DNA of 64,000 bases, taken from NCBI GenBank assembly GCA_945946765.1, contig CAMEWS010000003.1, forward strand, positions 480 to 64,479, in the 5' to 3' direction. The notes below the pieces were generated by a model. It worked only from the letters and a program-made list of their open reading frames with translations. It had not been told where the DNA came from and searched no databases. Every line of letters starts with the position of its first letter. Positions within the stretch are counted from its first letter, which is position 1. Position numbers and translations under genes: made by a program. This document shows positions 5,704 through 35,142 of the stretch, piece by piece. Source of the DNA: an uncultured Clostridia bacterium (lineage in GTDB: Bacteria; Cyanobacteriota; Vampirovibrionia; Gastranaerophilales; Gastranaerophilaceae).

Positions 5704-7575
5704 TTACACATCATGAGGTTGTCTTGCTTCTTCAACTCGTTTCATAATTGCAACAAATTCCTCTTCATCAAGTGTTTCTTTTTCCAAGAGTTCTTTTGCA
5801 ATCACCTCAAGCATATCTCTGTTGCCTAGTAAAAGTTCTTTTGCAAGGTTGTATCTTTCATCAACAATGCGTTTAACCTCTCTGTCTATGTCAGCAGCAA
5901 TTTCTTCGGAATAATCACGAGAATGTCCGAAATCTCTGCCCATAAACACATGTTCTTGACTTTTTCCGTACGCCATGTTGCCCATTTTAAAAGACATACC
6001 GTACGTTGTAACCATGTTTCTTGCCGTAGCTGTAACTTTTTCAAGGTCGTTTTGAGCACCTGTCGTAATCGAATCGGGACCGTAAACAATTTCCTCCGCA
6101 ACACGTCCGCCCAACAACATCGTAATTCTGTCTAAAAGTTGTGTTTTCTTAAGCGTTAAGTGGTCTTTTTCAGGCAAAGTCATTGTAACCCCAAGAGCCA
6201 TACCACGAGGGATAATAGACACTTTGTGCAACGGGTCTGTATCTTTTAACAATTTTGCAAGCAATGCGTGACCGACTTCATGGTATGCGGTATTTTCTTT
6301 TTCTTCATCCGAAATAATTCTGCTTTTCTTTTCAGGTCCTGCAATAACCTTGTCAATAGCCTCCTCAAGATTAAGCATATTGATTTTATCTTCATTTTTT
6401 CTTGCAGCAAGCAACGCAGCTTCATTTAAAAGATTTTGCAAATCTGCACCCGTAAACCCCGGAGTTCTTTTAGCAAGAACCTTTAAATCCACATCTTCGG
6501 CAAGCGGTTTATTTTTTGCATGGACATTAAGAATCTGTTCTCTGCCCAAAATATCAGGTCTGTGAACAACAATCTGCCTGTCAAAACGTCCCGGTCTTAA
6601 TAAAGCATTGTCAAGAATATCAGGTCTGTTTGTTGCAGCAATAACAATAATATTTGTATTTTCGTCAAAACCATCCATTTCAACAAGCAACTGGTTAAGA
6701 GTTTGTTCTCTTTCGTCATGTCCGCCGCCCATGCCGGCACCTCTTTGACGTCCTACAGCATCAATTTCATCAATAAATATAATACATGGCTGATGTTTTT
6801 TAGCCTGTTCAAACAAATCTCTTACACGTGATGCACCAACACCGACAAACATTTCCACAAAATCGGAACCGCTGATTGAGAAGAAGGGTACACCGGCTTC
6901 ACCTGCAACAGCTTTAGCCATCAATGTTTTACCCGTCCCCGGTACACCCACAAGCAAAACGCCTTTTGGAATTTTAGCACCAAGCTTAATATATTTTTCA
7001 CCGTTTTTGAGGAAATCTACGATTTCTTCAAGCTCTTGTTTTTCTTCATCAATACCTGCAACATCTTTAAACGTTACTTTAACTTTGCTGTCTAAAAGCA
7101 ACTTTGCCTTGCTTTTACCGAAAGACATTGCCTGTGAACCGCCTGATTGAAGTGTTTTAGCCATTAATATAACAAAACCTATAATCAATACAAACGGAAG
7201 AATTATAGATAAAAATCCCATAAATTGAGAAGAATCACTGGGTTTTTTAATGTTAACATCCACATTTTGTGCTTCCAATTTTTGGTATAAGGTTATATCA
7301 TTCATCGGAAGCATAACTCTGTATTGAACACTCACGGGATGTTTTGGATTAACAACGGTGGTAACGGTTTCCGTATGTCCTGCTTTTGGCTTTGCAATAA
7401 GTGTTTCTTTATCTATTTGTACGGATTCAATCTGTCCGCTTTTAACCTTACTCAAAAATTGTGAATACGAAATATCTTTTGTGTCGGTAGTTTGTCCCGG
7501 AAAAAGCATGGACGCAAGACACAAAATCAATAACACAACTACTATCCATATACCCATAGATTGACTTTTATTCAT
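5704..7575 (-). CDS. ftsH: ATP-dependent zinc metalloprotease FtsH
   Basis: Walker A GVPGTGKT, Walker [10 protein letters not shown], second region of homology, and the HEVGHAL zinc site. Two N-terminal TM segments. Confidence 0.97.
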
Positions 7576-30369: not shown

Positions 30370-30714
30370 CTAGGCAGGGAGCTTATCTACAGACAAAGTG
30401 TATCCTAAGCCGTTTAGAATTTTGGTTATGGTCGTGAAGTTTGGCGATGTTTTTGTTTTTCCATGCAGCAAATCAACAAGATTTGCTCTGTTCATACCGA
30501 CCTGCTCAGCAAATTCTTTGACCGAACCGCGTGCTTTTATGACGTATTCCAACCCGCGATAGAACGCGCTGTAATCTCCGGTTTCAATGTAATCTTTTAT
30601 AGTTTCAGACAACCATGCTTGCTGAAAATCAGGGTCTTTTAGTTTTGCTTGCATATCTTCGTCGAAAGTCATACAACTTTCAAGATATTTACGTTGTTTG
30701 TCAGTAAGTTCCAT
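30370..30714 (-). CDS. higA: HigA-family antitoxin (addiction module antidote protein, HTH)
   Basis: 114 aa with C-terminal HTH FAEQVGMNRANLVDLLHGKTKTSPNFTTITKILNGLGYTLSV. Sits downstream of a RelE/HigB-like gene in the inverted higBA order. Confidence 0.78.
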   Translation of the reverse strand: MELTDKQRKYLESCMTFDEDMQAKLKDPDFQQAWLSETIKDYIETGDYSAFYRGLEYVIKARGSVKEFAEQVGMNRANLVDLLHGKTKTSPNFTTITKILNGLGYTLSVDKLPA

Positions 30715-30736
30715 TGTTATATTCCTTTCAGTATTA

Positions 30737-31057
30737 TTATTTACTCAAAAAATCTTCTAAATATTGGTTAGCTTTTTGAATCGTTTTCTTTTGTTCTTTT
30801 TTATCACTTCCTGCAAGAAAAAGAACTAATGTTGTGTCCAAATCAAGATAATATATTCTGTACCCTTTGCCAAAATCCATCCTTAGTTCAGACAATTCAG
30901 AGTTTTGGAGCTTTTTGTGGTCGCCATAATTTCCGTCTTTTAGCTTATCGACCCGTTTAGCCACGCGCACACGAACAGACATATCAAGTTCATTGTACCA
31001 TTCAGAATACGGGCATTTTCCGTCTTGGGTTTTGTAGTATAGAATCTGTTTTTCCAT
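30737..31057 (-). CDS. higB: HigB/RelE-family toxin (addiction module killer protein)
   Basis: 106 aa. The pattern YKTQDGKCPYSEWYNELD...RVAKRVDKLKDGNYGDHKKL...LSELRMDFGKGYRIYY is typical of the killer-protein family. Confidence 0.78.
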   Translation of the reverse strand: MEKQILYYKTQDGKCPYSEWYNELDMSVRVRVAKRVDKLKDGNYGDHKKLQNSELSELRMDFGKGYRIYYLDLDTTLVLFLAGSDKKEQKKTIQKANQYLEDFLSK

Positions 31058-31175: not shown

Positions 31176-32261
31176 CTATTTTGGTTTTCGATGAAAATCC
31201 ACTACTTTGACGTTTCCATCTACCGATTTTATTCTTTTATTTATACATTTACCCAAAATTTCAAGATAATCAGATTCGTTAATGGTTAAAATTTTCATCA
31301 TTTCTGTTTTGCTGTAATCTAATTCATTATACAAATAAAATATTATATCTTTTAATAATGTAGGCTCCTCTTTTTCAATATCCATAGTTGGCTCGGTAAC
31401 TCGAAAACCTGATTGACTTAACCTTACATTTAAAGACTTGTATTTATTTTCATCAATTAATTCCAAATCTTTGGCTCGACGGATTAATGCCGACATAGAA
31501 ACTCTCCACATCGATTTTAAATTAGGAAGATTCCAAAATTCTAAATTTTTTAAATCTTCTTTTATATCTTTTGCAGGCATTAAAAAACTTGAAGCAAAGG
31601 AATTAGCCTCATCTTCTCGTTTTGCAGATAAGCTATTTCTATGCATTATTAAATGCCCCAACTCATGAGCCAATGTAAATCTATATCTATCTGGAGGTTG
31701 ATTTTTATTGATAATAATAAATCCAAACCCATATTTTTTATTATAAAAACTAACTCCATCAAATTTTTTAGGGTGCATATCTATTTCATTAATAATAATC
31801 CCAAATTGCTCTAAAATTTTAGTCAAATTTCTAACATATCCTTTTGGCATATCCCAAATATAACGGACTTCTTCAGCAATTGATTCGGGAGTATTTTCTT
31901 CATCTACAACTATTTCTGGAATATTTACATCCATATCTATAAAATTTAACAATTTAGATATGTAAATGTTATTTTTTGATGCAATTGAATCTATATAGTT
32001 CTCTTCTTTTTTCAACAAGGATGTTTTTTTTCTATGAAGACGAACCCCCATGTCTAATGCATAACAATCATTTTTAAAAAATTCGATAGGATAATCTAAC
32101 ACCTGAGAAATATCTTCCAAAAATTTCTCACTAGGATTATTGAGACCGGCTTCAACCTTGGAAATTATCACTTGAGAAATCTTTATCTTATCTGCCAGCT
32201 CTTGTTGTGTCATTTGACGAGATTCCCGAGCAATTCTTAGCATATCTGGATTAAATGTCAT
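31176..32261 (-). CDS. fused XRE-family HTH / ImmA-IrrE (DUF955, M78) metallopeptidase
   Basis: N-terminal LRIARESRQMTQQELADKIKISQVIISKVEAG (HTH_3), then an HEXXH site, FTLAHELGHLIMH, with downstream EDEANSFASSFLMP. Confidence 0.85.
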   Translation of the reverse strand: MTFNPDMLRIARESRQMTQQELADKIKISQVIISKVEAGLNNPSEKFLEDISQVLDYPIEFFKNDCYALDMGVRLHRKKTSLLKKEENYIDSIASKNNIYISKLLNFIDMDVNIPEIVVDEENTPESIAEEVRYIWDMPKGYVRNLTKILEQFGIIINEIDMHPKKFDGVSFYNKKYGFGFIIINKNQPPDRYRFTLAHELGHLIMHRNSLSAKREDEANSFASSFLMPAKDIKEDLKNLEFWNLPNLKSMWRVSMSALIRRAKDLELIDENKYKSLNVRLSQSGFRVTEPTMDIEKEEPTLLKDIIFYLYNELDYSKTEMMKILTINESDYLEILGKCINKRIKSVDGNVKVVDFHRKPK

Positions 32262-32898
32262 TTGCGTTTCTTTCTTCTTTGTTTTCTTGCTCTTTTTGTT
32301 CTTTTTCTTGTTTTAATGACTCTTTGACTCTAAAATTAGGTTTAATTTCTTGAAGATTCGTGTCTTTGTTTTCTCGAATATTATCAATGGCAGGGTGTTT
32401 CAATATTACAACATTATGATTATAAAGTGTTTCTACAAATTTATTATTGAAATCTGCTACACGTATTATTTGTAGAGTTGTCCTATCTACGGATGTTTTT
32501 ATACCTATTTCAAACTCAGAATCCTTTATTTCATCTTTTTGAGCAAAACATTCAAGTGGGAATGTCATTTGAGTAAACTCTGAATTTTCAATTATTTCTC
32601 TTTTCGCCTTAGGTAAGCTATTATGAAACTTAATTTTTACTTTTTCATTATTGATTATAAAATATTGGCTTAAGTGTGAACGACAATAGCATATGTCCTT
32701 TTCTTCTGCAAAACTTTTCAACGGTTCATACAAATTATCCTTTATATCAATTGTCATATTGTAATTGGAAGTTCTCTTAGATTTCTTTTCTAATTTTGCA
32801 ACATCAACAGCAAATTTTATAATCTGAATTAGTTCATCTTTAATTTCATAAATCTTGTTTAGTACTTCAGAACATTTATCAGTGTTAATATTTGTCAT
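32251..32898 (-). CDS. hypothetical protein, translationally coupled partner of the XRE-ImmA gene
   Basis: 215 aa. Its stop overlaps the ImmA start by 11 nt (AATGACATTTAA). Lys/Glu-rich C-terminal tail. No family recognised. Confidence 0.5.
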   Translation of the reverse strand: MTNINTDKCSEVLNKIYEIKDELIQIIKFAVDVAKLEKKSKRTSNYNMTIDIKDNLYEPLKSFAEEKDICYCRSHLSQYFIINNEKVKIKFHNSLPKAKREIIENSEFTQMTFPLECFAQKDEIKDSEFEIGIKTSVDRTTLQIIRVADFNNKFVETLYNHNVVILKHPAIDNIRENKDTNLQEIKPNFRVKESLKQEKEQKEQENKEERNANDI

Positions 32899-33154
32899 TA
32901 GTATCTCCCCTATTTATATTTTCATTTTACATGAATACTATAGCGCAGCATGTTTATTTTTTCAAGTGTTTTTATAACCAAATGTATAACCCCGATTTTA
33001 CTACATTCTCCAATATTTCATAGAAATAAATGTACGTCATAAAGAAAATTTTTCAACATAAAACTGTTTTTATTTAATTACGCATGCCAAATTATAACCA
33101 GTTTACAAAACTAGCATAAATCATAAAAGAAAAAACAAAAAAAAATATTTATAC

Positions 33155-34819
33155 TTAAATTGTTTTACTCAATTCAACATTTTTTTCCTTAGCAGAAAGA
33201 CTATTTATTATTTTATTTCTTGTTTGTGTCATACCGTGCTCATAATAAATTAAAGAAAATTGTTGCATCATCTCCATAGCAGCTTTATTGTACACAACAG
33301 TTTCTTTCATATATTCATTTTGTTCTATATCTGTTGCATCAAAAAGCAAATCAAATATATTTTCATCAATAGAATAGACCTTAACTCTCCACATAAATCG
33401 AGGATAACGAGAATTTGTTAATCGCAACTTTTCTTCTTTTGATAATAGTTCATCACTAATGATTGAATATTTAAACTCATTAATATCCGTCAAAAATATT
33501 TCCCAAGATAACCCAGGAGCCATTCTTTTTATTTGTTCATTATCTAATTGCATAGAAACACAGACGAACAAATGATTAAATTCATATACTTGCCTCAATA
33601 TAGACTCAAAAGGGATTCTTATTTTATGGTATGTAGGTATTAACAATGCTTTAGGAATTGCATGATAATTCTTTCTTCCATTTTCCATACCATAAGATGT
33701 AGTTAAAACCCATCTTTGATAGACCGAATCATCTTCATTTTTAATTACTTTTCCAAACATATCAACATCAAAACCGATTTGTCCAAATTCCATTTTTGCA
33801 AATGGTCCAACTTGATCATCATGTACATAAATTTTGGAAATATTAGCTGCTCTTAATTTGAGAGGAAACCCCTCATTCGGTTGTTGAAATACGCAATCTA
33901 CTTTTTTATTTTCATCAAAATTATAACCGACAATAGTTACGGCATGCAAATCAACTCGTTTAGTAATTTCGTTAATAAGTTTTATACCCAACATAACAGG
34001 TAAATGAGCTTTTAAATATGCGTAAATTGTTGCTTTAGTTAAAACTTCACTATCCGCACTTATATATAAAGGTTCTAACCCAACTTTATTTATGGCTTTA
34101 GCCATCATTTCTAGACTCAAACCATGATTTGGGAATGCTCTGTTCGATACAGGAAAATCCTGTGTGGCTGCCTTAGTTATTTCATATGGTGAGGGAATAG
34201 AATGATGAAACAATTCACCAGTGCCATAAAACATACTCCATAATGAACTAGTTGCACATGCTGCAACAACACTATCTTGTTCCTGAAAAGGAAGCGTTTC
34301 TATACAAAGCGGTATCCCCGCAAGATGTACCTTATGTTTCACAGTAGCAGGAAAATAACGATTATCTTCTTTAGGGTAGCATTTTAAACATGTCTTGCCA
34401 ATAATACTTTGTGGTAAATTTTTGATTACCATATAGCCAAGATAATTGTCTTGTAATTTTTGATGATTTTCTTGAAAAAGTTGAAAATCAGTCAATAAAC
34501 TATTAAATTTCTCTTCCGTTATGTCACAAGAAAAGAAATGTAAACGAGTACAAAAACGTTCATACGGATGAAAACACTTTACATAATAACTTGCATAATC
34601 ATTCAAAAAATCTTTATCAATATATTGTTTTTCAACAACAAAAGTTTTGACATTTAAAGTTTGTAAATAGTCTTTATAGAAATTATTATCAAGTTTTTGT
34701 TCTAGATAATTAGTGTTTATTTGAGAGAAAGTTAAAAGTACAGACTTTAAGGTTTCAAAATCATATGGCAATATTATAAAATTTTTACCATTTTCTTTTA
34801 AGTCAATATCTACGGTCAA
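33155..34819 (-). CDS. predicted papain-fold (C39-like) cysteine protease with unassigned N- and C-terminal domains
   Basis: 554 aa with a TTG start. Ordered motifs are QEQDSVVAACATSSLWSMFYGTG (Cys188), VDLHAVTIVGYNF (His292) and IYVHDDQVGPF (Asp333/334). Confidence 0.5.
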   Translation of the reverse strand: MTVDIDLKENGKNFIILPYDFETLKSVLLTFSQINTNYLEQKLDNNFYKDYLQTLNVKTFVVEKQYIDKDFLNDYASYYVKCFHPYERFCTRLHFFSCDITEEKFNSLLTDFQLFQENHQKLQDNYLGYMVIKNLPQSIIGKTCLKCYPKEDNRYFPATVKHKVHLAGIPLCIETLPFQEQDSVVAACATSSLWSMFYGTGELFHHSIPSPYEITKAATQDFPVSNRAFPNHGLSLEMMAKAINKVGLEPLYISADSEVLTKATIYAYLKAHLPVMLGIKLINEITKRVDLHAVTIVGYNFDENKKVDCVFQQPNEGFPLKLRAANISKIYVHDDQVGPFAKMEFGQIGFDVDMFGKVIKNEDDSVYQRWVLTTSYGMENGRKNYHAIPKALLIPTYHKIRIPFESILRQVYEFNHLFVCVSMQLDNEQIKRMAPGLSWEIFLTDINEFKYSIISDELLSKEEKLRLTNSRYPRFMWRVKVYSIDENIFDLLFDATDIEQNEYMKETVVYNKAAMEMMQQFSLIYYEHGMTQTRNKIINSLSAKEKNVELSKTI

Positions 34820-34993
34820 TTAAACACCTATGCGTAACTTCATAACTTCAGGTGACACTAATAATGATTGCACCATGTTTTGAGAAACATCACTAGCCTG
34901 TCTACTAGAATTAAGTACAAACTCTCTTCTTCCCTCTGAATTCATAAACTTAAGGATATCAGAAGTAATTTCTTTATATCTTAACTCTTCCAT
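34820..34993 (-). CDS. small 57-aa protein coupled to the protease-like gene
   Basis: Below the ORF-track size cutoff. The ATG at 34991-34993 has a GAGGG RBS 7 nt upstream. Product: MEELRYKEITSDILKFMNSEGRREFVLNSSRQASDVSQNMVQSLLVSPEVMKLRIGV. Its TAA stop is directly followed by the TTG start of the 554-aa ORF. Confidence 0.5.
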   Translation of the reverse strand: MEELRYKEITSDILKFMNSEGRREFVLNSSRQASDVSQNMVQSLLVSPEVMKLRIGV

Positions 34994-35142
34994 TTTACAC
35001 CCTCTTCTTATTTGAATAATATCATAAATGTTAATTATTTTACTAATATATTACTTTTTTTTACAAACTAAAATCCTATAAATACCGTATTGATATATTC
35101 AAGTATTTTAAAACAATACATTTTGTACTCGTTTCTTTTAAA

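Follow-up and report, generated by a model that had tools for sequence, protein, structure and literature searches.

The 64,000-nucleotide (nt) stretch analysed here (the window) comes from an assembly of an uncultured Clostridia bacterium that GTDB places in the Gastranaerophilales (contig CAMEWS010000003.1, positions 480 to 64,479). On its minus strand lie two adjoining open reading frames (ORFs), a small one encoding a 57-amino acid (aa) protein and a large one encoding a 554-aa protein with a predicted papain-like cysteine peptidase domain (Table 1). An earlier note on this DNA had proposed the two genes as an undescribed system, describing a 57-aa ORF with a GAGGG ribosome-binding site whose TAA stop codon stands directly against the in-frame TTG start of the 554-aa ORF. 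Our reading of the sequence agrees with this description (junction at 34817–34822). The abutment of stop and start, together with a second Shine-Dalgarno-like sequence, AGGTG, inside the small ORF, indicates probable translational coupling of the pair. The first ~130 codons of the large ORF include no ATG, and the public gene calls (P0001/P0170) share its TTG start. The small ORF was missing from the ORF list on which the earlier note was based, but it is not unlisted elsewhere, because public records already call it as a gene (P0164); in public assemblies, both proteins are called and neither is named. The promoter-like site upstream of the small ORF falls inside the conserved border of the cassette described below, and it is weak evidence because the region is AT-rich.

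The large protein had been said to show the catalytic order of papain and C39 peptidases. Checking by hand placed the codons of Cys188 and His292 at exactly these residues. Gln179 and Gln181 are also present, but they sit in FQEQD, just ahead of the string VVAACATS quoted for them, and the acidic pair had been misnumbered: it is formed by Asp334 and Asp335, residue 333 being a histidine. An alignment of 30 diverse homologues from many phyla contained 72 invariant columns, and Q179, Q181, C188, H292, H333, D334 and D335 were identical in 30/30. The Cys/His pair, the Gln and the Asp-Asp were likewise kept in a subfamily with only 28% identity (719–726 aa) that is carried by plasmids of Pseudomonas aeruginosa (L090:4839–7019) and Shewanella baltica (L091:4926–7085). 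In the AlphaFold2 (AF2) model of the large protein (predicted local distance difference test score (pLDDT) 83.9; predicted TM-score 0.85), DSSP assigned a helix at 187–204 and strands at 289–301 and 327–334. Cys188 begins this helix, and His292 and Asp334 lie on adjacent strands, so that the model reproduces the papain arrangement. A Foldseek search of the model against the PDB retrieved staphopains A, B and C (1y4h, 1pxv, 1cv8 and 8oig) with a probability of 1.0 and a target TM-score of 0.61–0.64; further matches were the C39 domains of PCAT1 and LahT, the cyanobacterial phytochelatin synthase (Alr0975) and the Treponema protease C0362.

The residues expected of clan CA were thus found (a Cys at the N-terminus of a helix, a His on a strand, an Asp and an upstream Gln), as was similarity of the predicted model to the clan CA fold. 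The Pfam family Peptidase_C39_2 (PF13529) gave sub-threshold matches in 9/30 homologues (best E = 1e-3) and a score of 24.7, against a gathering score of 24.0, for the distant plasmid homologue L090; the window protein itself gave no match at E ≤ 1, and membership of the large protein in this Pfam family appears borderline. As a whole, this information supports the proposed papain/C39 order and indicates that the central domain (residues ~177–400) is most probably a divergent clan CA, C39_2-like cysteine peptidase domain.

The regions on either side of this domain, for which the earlier note could offer no assignment, did not acquire relatives in our searches. The N-terminal domain (residues 1–176) carries the invariant residues E63, Y66, D74, Y78, Y79, R88, C90, R92, H94, K133, T143, C144 and R154, and its polar members suggest a second ligand-binding or catalytic site. 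A separate Foldseek search with its model against the PDB found no relative (best E = 2.1), and its profile found only noise among PDB sequences. GNAT proteins and L/F-transferase, which appeared as a few low-probability matches of the whole protein, were absent from the separate search and were rejected as relatives of this domain. The C-terminal domain (residues ~401–554) has the invariant motif F-D-A-T-D-I-E (493–499; D-A-T-D-I, 494–498) as well as W439, P473 and W477, and had neither a sequence-profile match among PDB sequences nor a Pfam match. A full-length profile of the 30 homologues retrieved nothing from PDB sequences, and a Foldseek search of the whole model against BFVD retrieved nothing at E ≤ 0.001, leaving the complete architecture unmatched. 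The flanking domains may serve in trigger sensing or substrate selection. By inspection, the N-terminus (MTVDIDLKENGK...) has no hydrophobic leader, and the large protein is presumably cytoplasmic.

Table 1. Features of the gene pair and of the neighbouring islet in the window.
Feature	Position	Strand	Basis or remark
Promoter-like site TTGTAA-18-TAAAAT	35037–35066	minus	Consensus scan; ~44 nt upstream of small ORF
Shine-Dalgarno sequence GAGGG of small ORF	35000–35004	minus	Sequence reading; 6 nt 5′ of ATG
Small partner ORF, 57 aa, ATG start	34820–34993	minus	ORF reading; ATG at 34993, TAA stop 34820–34822
Shine-Dalgarno-like AGGTG within final codons of small ORF	34825–34829	minus	5 nt 5′ of large-ORF TTG
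Large ORF, 554 aa, TTG start (34817–34819)	33155–34819	minus	Three-domain cysteine hydrolase, predicted cytoplasmic
N-terminal domain, residues 1–176, alpha/beta	34292–34819	minus	Alignment columns; own AF2 model, pLDDT 86
Papain-like (Peptidase_C39_2-like) catalytic domain, residues ~177–400	33620–34291	minus	Predicted from invariants, AF2 model and Foldseek
Gln181 codon	34277–34279	minus	Invariant
Cys188 codon	34256–34258	minus	Invariant; N-terminus of helix 187–204
His292 codon	33944–33946	minus	Invariant; strand 289–301
Asp334 codon	33818–33820	minus	Invariant
Asp335 codon	33815–33817	minus	Invariant
C-terminal domain, residues ~401–554 and stop codon, alpha/beta	33155–33619	minus	Invariants, AF2 model
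215-aa ORF	32251–32898	minus	Overlaps start of the next ORF by 11 nt
XRE helix-turn-helix (HTH) and M78 (ImmA/IrrE) fusion, 361 aa	31176–32261	minus	Full-length match to PADLOC RmrA (Rosmer antitoxin), E = 2.5e-64
Gp49/HigB-like toxin gene	30737–31057	minus	PF05973
HigA-like HTH antidote gene	30370–30714	minus	PF21716

The large protein belongs to a sizeable family. Clustering at 90% left 1,742 homologues, and a search of 1.84 billion proteins gave 4,676 cluster representatives at 50% identity (E ≤ 1e-3), of which 2,140 matched at E ≤ 1e-30. The members are all 500–580 aa long and ~40% identical between phyla, which include Aminicenantes, Planctomycetota, Bacteroidota, Pseudomonadota, Nitrospirota, Cyanobacteria and others. 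Their distribution is sparse and phylogenetically scattered: a scan of 185,579 genomes found the family in 227, a lower bound, since the scan was limited by its search pattern and covered one genome per species. The family was also found on four plasmids (the distant, longer subfamily) and on six IMG/VR contigs, and one metagenome-assembled genome carries two copies of the cassette (L013 and L030).

The small protein of the window consists of two predicted helices joined by an (F/W)-x-x-S-x-(E/D)-G turn, followed by a tail that ends ...VSPEVMKLRIGV-COOH. An alignment of 71 small proteins was nearly gapless over the final ~45 residues and showed the same pattern throughout, namely, a first helix ending in Trp/Phe, the turn x-S-x-(E/D)-G, a second helix and the tail. 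The last 14 residues were gapless, R-x-[VI]-D-P-x-x-L-x-E-P-[IFVYM]-T-[LVI], and were followed directly by the stop codon; in the clade of the window (Gastranaerophilales and relatives), the tail reads V-S-P-E-V-M-K-L-R-I-G-V. The C-terminus is the most conserved part of the protein and the N-terminus the least, and the protein is charged and has no variable region resembling a cargo. The small ORFs span 49–70 core residues. Profile searching with the small protein retrieved only stand-alone unnamed proteins of 49–109 aa, and the match of the L090 small protein to MazE (E = 0.0065) was at chance level. The small ORF is more than a chance reading frame, because a hidden Markov model (HMM) of it matched beside the large gene in 86/89 loci and the ratio of nonsynonymous to synonymous substitution rates (dN/dS) among four close relatives was 0.08–0.34.

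The same count answers the question of co-occurrence raised by the earlier note, and bears out the conservation of the 57-aa ORF. The three loci without a match comprise two in which the large gene lies at the very start of the contig and the upstream DNA is absent (L014 and L040), and one (L076) with a partial match from query residue 70 on, in which a usable start codon was not found. Seen from the other partner, all three small-protein homologues with sampled context adjoin a 526-aa large gene, and the plasmid subfamily of the large protein also has a small upstream ORF. In related loci with upstream sequence, the small ORF generally runs up to or into the start of the large gene. The order is inverted in L046, L047 and L065, where the small gene follows the large one. 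In another locus (L054:5956–7722), a single ORF encodes the large protein with the small partner fused to its C-terminus, and the tail (...RVDPSSFKQIFTI) again forms the free end; this fusion is a single case in which an assembly error is possible. A further variant occurs in 'Candidatus Porisulfidus', where two tandem, diverged small genes precede one large gene (L007:5210–5404 and 5800–5994; = L012). Swapped gene order and gene fusion are well-known hallmarks of proteins that interact physically, from which we infer that the two proteins bind each other. Since the tail is terminal in every layout, its free C-terminal end is suggested to be functionally important.

The spacing of the two genes was compared across 65 related loci. 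The median gap from stop to start was 9 nt, and the gap was ≤15 nt in 55/65; the two ORFs shared a reading frame in 30/65. Close coupling thus appears to be kept across the family, whereas the in-frame junction of the window pair is apparently not. A 612-aa read-through or fusion product was therefore rejected as a feature of the family, because the frame is shared in only 30/65 loci and the homologues start where the window protein starts.

Comparison with two related loci defined the borders of the unit. The first, L001, is a prophage-like contig from another organism with genes for YopX, a serine recombinase and a ParB-methyltransferase. It shares with the window only 35082–33146, a stretch that begins ~90 nt before the small ORF and ends shortly after the stop codon of the large ORF, and its copy of the cassette is 83% identical. 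The second, L010, is the locus most closely related to that of the window; it comes from a related member of the Gastranaerophilales (DNA 88% identical) and carries the cassette at the same chromosomal locus with different neighbours: a DUF3800 gene (L010:4449–5639; PADLOC candidate PDC-M04A, E = 1.5e-11) is inserted between the MerR gene and the pair, and the window segment 30428–33155 is absent. Homology with both begins at 35082–35091, so that the cassette measures 1.94 kb (~33146 to 35091). The earlier note had correctly placed a MerR regulator and an XRE-ImmA gene on either side of the pair, but neither belongs to the system. MerR was rejected because it lies outside the stretch shared with L001 and is separated from the pair in L010, and the XRE-M78 gene and the 215-aa gene because L010 lacks them and retains the pair; these three and the HigBA-like pair are therefore independent tenants of a variable islet. 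The DUF3800 insertion looks like a further sign of a hotspot for accessory genes. When 710 flanking ORFs from 84 loci were compared all against all, no family was present in more than nine loci, and the 141 immediate neighbours represented 129 Pfam families, each seen three times at most. These data indicate that the unit probably consists of two genes, with no conserved third gene.

Present in a chromosomal islet as well as in a prophage-like element, the cassette evidently moves between the two, and in L001, L007 (XerC-type), L008, L009 and L098 an integrase or recombinase gene lies next to the pair. The G+C content of the cassette equals that of its flanks, so that composition gives no sign of recent acquisition. 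In the window, the surroundings of the pair are better described as a variable islet of toxin-antitoxin (TA) and defence-type modules than as the "mobile island" of the earlier note; an integrase was not found among the ORFs scanned at ~22.4–38 kb. As a separate observation, the L001 contig encodes at 1–755 a metallo-beta-lactamase-fold protein with a match to Pfam Anti-Pycsar_Apyc1, and this element may thus also carry an anti-defence gene.

The islet of the window contains, in addition to the cassette, two pairs of genes, and it is flanked by housekeeping-type genes (GH57, heptosyltransferase, WG-repeat protein and TM2 protein). The TA module reported next to the cassette corresponds to the HigBA-like pair at 30370–31057, which by its Pfam matches is a type II TA pair. 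At 31176–32898, the 215-aa ORF and the RmrA-like fusion look like a Rosmer-type toxin/antitoxin pair, with the 215-aa ORF as the candidate RmrT. Rosmer (RmrT/RmrA) was rejected as the parent system of the protease pair, because the RmrA-like segment is absent from L010, where the pair is kept. Flanking genes in related loci include GajA, a type I restriction endonuclease, BrxL, AriA/PtuA-type ATPases, AbiLi, mad3, CapP/RmrA and several PADLOC candidates (PDC).

One neighbour recurs. A Bub-type cluster (ThiF/E1 and multiubiquitin ubiquitin-like protein (Ubl)) directly adjoins the pair in 7/80 species loci (L016, L017, L033, L043, L053, L055 and L071), and also in L008, at the P. aeruginosa plasmid locus L090 (p4782_002) and on the metagenome contigs L098–L100 (examples, L016:3175–5609 and L090:226–4040). 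These clusters contain DUF6527 or two unnamed proteins of 111 and 168 aa, usually an XRE gene and sometimes M78 (CapH/CapP-like); a short contig, L101, has XRE, multiubiquitin, p111 and p168 genes and no ThiF match. They are divergent, convergent or co-directional relative to the pair, and occur in several phyla. By a rough estimate, rather than a computed statistic, the linkage looks too frequent for chance. About 10% of loci have an adjacent Bub operon and ~90%, the window included, do not; in tblastn searches of the window, none of five ThiF, three multiubiquitin and one DUF6527 queries had a match. The pair therefore works without Bub genes. Bub (6E/DUF6527) operons are ubiquitination-like and carry CapH/CapP regulators, and neither their targets nor phage protection have been found so far (PMC11601596). 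Neither this paper nor its companion mentions a papain-like partner of Bub operons, and the linkage to the present pair is unreported in that literature.

Searches of Pfam, NCBIfam, PADLOC, PHROGs and PDB sequences found nothing for either window protein except phrog_31805, at chance level. Full-text literature searching, which covered neither subscription-only papers nor catalogues newer than PADLOC 2.0, found no description of the pair or the family, yielding only the StbD-CT/StbI work discussed below and the papers on Bub operons. A known non-defence family, such as a bacteriocin-processing or cell-wall peptidase, had been named as an alternative, and the loci showed no ABC transporter, no conserved third gene, and no bacteriocin or cell-wall context. 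What is new here is thus a large unannotated protease family with a small cognate protein, whereas modules of this kind (a protease with a cognate small protein) are already known.

The known systems nearest to the pair include the staphopain-staphostatin systems of Staphylococcus aureus (scpA/scpB and sspB/sspC; MEROPS C47); it is staphopains that the catalytic domain matches best in structure. These systems also pair a papain-like protease with a small dedicated protein, the staphostatin, which is co-transcribed and protects the cytoplasm. However, staphopains are secreted pro-enzymes of ~40 kDa, whereas the large protein has no visible leader and two extra conserved domains; and staphostatins are beta-barrels of ~105–110 aa encoded downstream, whereas the present partner has ~57 aa, lies upstream and is helical by its sequence pattern. 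No sequence match of the window proteins to PDB chains was found, nor was the combination of a secreted pro-enzyme with a downstream beta-barrel. A second parallel is StbD-CT, a C39-type peptidase that acts as a cytosolic toxin by cleaving GyrB and ParE and is neutralised by the small protein StbI, a beta-sheet protein that binds opposite the StbD-CT active site (bioRxiv 10.64898/2026.05.07.723447). StbD-CT/StbI resembles the pair in combining a C39-type Cys-His-Asp peptidase with a small cognate protein, but StbD-CT is delivered between cells at the tip of a CdiA-like effector and has an entry domain, whereas the family described here is stand-alone, predicted to be intracellular, has other flanking domains and shows no secretion context.

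The leader peptidases of the C39/Peptidase_C39_2 group, which belong to bacteriocin ABC exporters (PCAT1, LahT and ComA), share the catalytic scaffold, with weak to marginal Pfam matches, and bind a short helical peptide that has hydrophobic residues at intervals and whose end marks the cleavage site. C39 bacteriocin systems combine an exporter, a Gly-Gly leader and a cargo, whereas the present pair has no ABC transporter, Gly-Gly motif or cargo peptide; the partner tail ends phi-T/G-phi where a leader would be cut, without G-G and cargo. Type II TA systems are similar in layout and mobility: a small upstream gene is coupled to a larger, co-oriented enzyme gene, the spread is patchy and horizontally driven, and the genes lie in defence islets, on plasmids or on prophage-like elements, at times with more than one copy in a genome. 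They differ in that the small protein has no DNA-binding domain, which in type II antitoxins is of the HTH, RHH, AbrB or Phd type and autoregulates the operon, and the putative toxin is unusually large and has three domains. Bub operons are, like the pair, sparse and island-borne, but they consist of E1, E2, Ubl and BubE, none of which the pair contains, and the pair mostly occurs without them.

Considering the invariant catalytic centre, the linked partner with its conserved tail, the mobility and context of the cassette, and the StbD-CT/StbI precedent, we tentatively read the pair as an autonomous, horizontally transferred two-gene conflict module in which a protease effector is held by a cognate tail-bearing inhibitor, an interpretation that is quite possible but short of probable. 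The large protein would be the effector or "toxin", a cytoplasmic three-domain enzyme whose core is an active papain-like Cys-His-Asp peptidase. The small protein, a predicted helical hairpin made just upstream by coupled translation, would bind the enzyme and keep it inactive. Its conserved tail (hydrophobic, small, hydrophobic, free carboxylate) might occupy the substrate cleft as a mimic of substrate or product, in the manner of a pro-segment or a staphostatin. Loss, displacement or degradation of the partner, through phage infection, loss of the cassette or stress, would free the protease, which would then cleave essential host or invader proteins and cause growth arrest or abortive infection. 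Binding of the partners is suggested by the linkage, the order swaps and the fusion in L054; that the tail inhibits the enzyme, that the large protein is toxic, and what would set it free are further suppositions of this model, and a defence or addiction function is read from genomic context. The plugging of the cleft is proposed from analogy and from the tail pattern, which has hydrophobic residues at positions –12, –7 and –3 and a small residue at –2. Papain-type enzymes usually prefer a hydrophobic P2 residue, and the hydrophobic –3 and small –2 positions would fit this preference. The segment with which staphostatin blocks the staphopain cleft, oriented like a substrate, is Ile-Gly-Thr, and the Ile-Gly-Val end of the window-clade tail recalls it.

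Several observations weigh against this inhibitor model. PADLOC-DB v2.0 (2023) gave no match for the window proteins, central family members or the long subfamily, and the large-protein family had no match in 50,697 phage genomes. Pfam and NCBIfam gave no match for the small protein, and hence no recognisable DNA-binding domain, a feature of most type II antitoxins. The large protein, with 554 aa and strong conservation in each of its three domains, is atypical as a simple toxin, and the model leaves the possible second site of the N-terminal domain unexplained. StbI binds away from the active site, unlike the tail-in-cleft inhibition proposed here. Mutual information between the last eight tail positions and all large-protein columns, computed for 65 pairs, gave no signal, as z did not exceed 2.5 and only high-entropy columns stood on top. 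The defence-type flanks, a raw listing of neighbours, are no more than suggestive, and at some loci the surroundings are of the housekeeping type, as in L004, where an ATP synthase operon lies beside the pair.

Two alternatives assign the small protein a different role. According to the first, which we regard as unlikely, the small protein is a physiological substrate or pro-effector: cleavage in or before the tail would mature, activate or destroy it, and the effect would come from the resulting fragment or from the disappearance of the intact protein, as a cytoplasmic analogue of C39 leader processing. Double-glycine leaders are recognised by C39 domains at positions –12, –7 and –2, and the tail, hydrophobic at –12 and –7 and small at –2, recalls them; the same –3 and –2 residues also fit the P2 preference of papain-type enzymes, and the enzymes nearest to the catalytic domain are C39-type leader peptidases and staphopains. 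However, the conserved motif reaches the last residue, so that at most 1–3 residues could be removed, and the tail is still terminal in the L054 fusion. No transporter or modification enzyme gene accompanies the pair, and a charged helical hairpin with no variable region is a poor candidate for a cargo.

The second alternative, also unlikely in our estimation, holds that the small protein is an activator, adaptor or trans-acting pro-domain that a regulatory, non-toxic protease needs in order to fold, stay stable or recognise its targets, the pair being engaged in specialised housekeeping or stress cleavage. The strict co-occurrence of the pair, the one fusion, the housekeeping surroundings at L004 and L007, and the very strong conservation of all three domains of the large protein agree with such a role. 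On the other side, the family occurs in at least 227 of 185,579 genomes, scattered over many phyla at ~40% identity, in variable neighbourhoods rich in mobile elements and defence genes and with multiple copies in some genomes. These are hallmarks of accessory conflict genes, not of housekeeping genes.

The Bub linkage permits two further readings. In the bolder one, which we consider rather improbable as a whole, the pair would be a protease-based immune module of a class not recognised before, in which the enzyme is locked by a separately encoded product mimic ending at P1 or P1′ and really cooperates with Bub and CapH/CapP, with the N- and C-terminal domains sensing a phage cue or a Ubl-modified target; the protease could then be, for example, the missing executioner of Bub signalling or a peptidase that processes Ubl or its conjugates. 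In the other, the enzyme would be an accessory of Bub, either cleaving Ubl precursors or conjugates in the manner of a deubiquitinase or acting as a downstream effector, with the small protein as a modulator. This proposal draws on the direct adjacency in the seven species loci and the additional contigs listed above, and on the type II Bub operons, which have no JAB peptidase and for which targets and a phage phenotype are not known (PMC11601596). Yet Bub operons contain their own peptidase, BubE (PMC11601596), the Bub papers mention no papain-like partner, and the great majority of loci, like the window, have no Bub cluster; adjacency may merely reflect shared residence in defence islands controlled by CapH/CapP. 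We give the accessory role a small chance.

The papain fold hosts many non-proteolytic activities, and the large protein might instead be an acyltransferase, transpeptidase, amidase or deamidase acting on a small molecule, on the C-terminus of the small protein or on another protein, as the match to phytochelatin synthase (a transpeptidase) and the conserved N- and C-terminal domains, which could bind a non-protein ligand, would allow; but this is just as doubtful, because the best structural matches are true endopeptidases (staphopains and C39 domains), the sole Pfam signal is a peptidase family and no biosynthetic genes are linked.

If the inhibitor model is true, a large unannotated family spanning Cyanobacteria-related Gastranaerophilales, Bacteroidota, Planctomycetota, Pseudomonadota, Nitrospirota and other phyla would join the short list of conflict systems with a cytoplasmic cysteine protease effector, and would represent a compact form of control in which a 57-aa tail-bearing partner restrains the protease. 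The cassette is small (1.9 kb) and self-contained, and hence readily testable. Two points raise the candidate above the average, namely, its flanking domains without detectable relatives and the unreported Bub linkage. The N-terminal domain without a PDB relative and the C-terminal domain without a sequence match are both worth structure determination, and the linkage gives a concrete handle on the question of Bub targets and phage phenotype left open in that work (PMC11601596).

One minor observation concerns the plasmid subfamily. Its members bear an additional C-terminal extension of ~170 aa with the conserved motif G-H-P-x-x-T-G...A-R-I-x-G-E...N-x-x-S-G-R-Y-S. Pfam, NCBIfam, PDB and homologue searches yielded no function for this extension, which may be an added effector or sensor domain. 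A stand-alone relative of 115 aa is encoded in a Vibrio genome (P0177).

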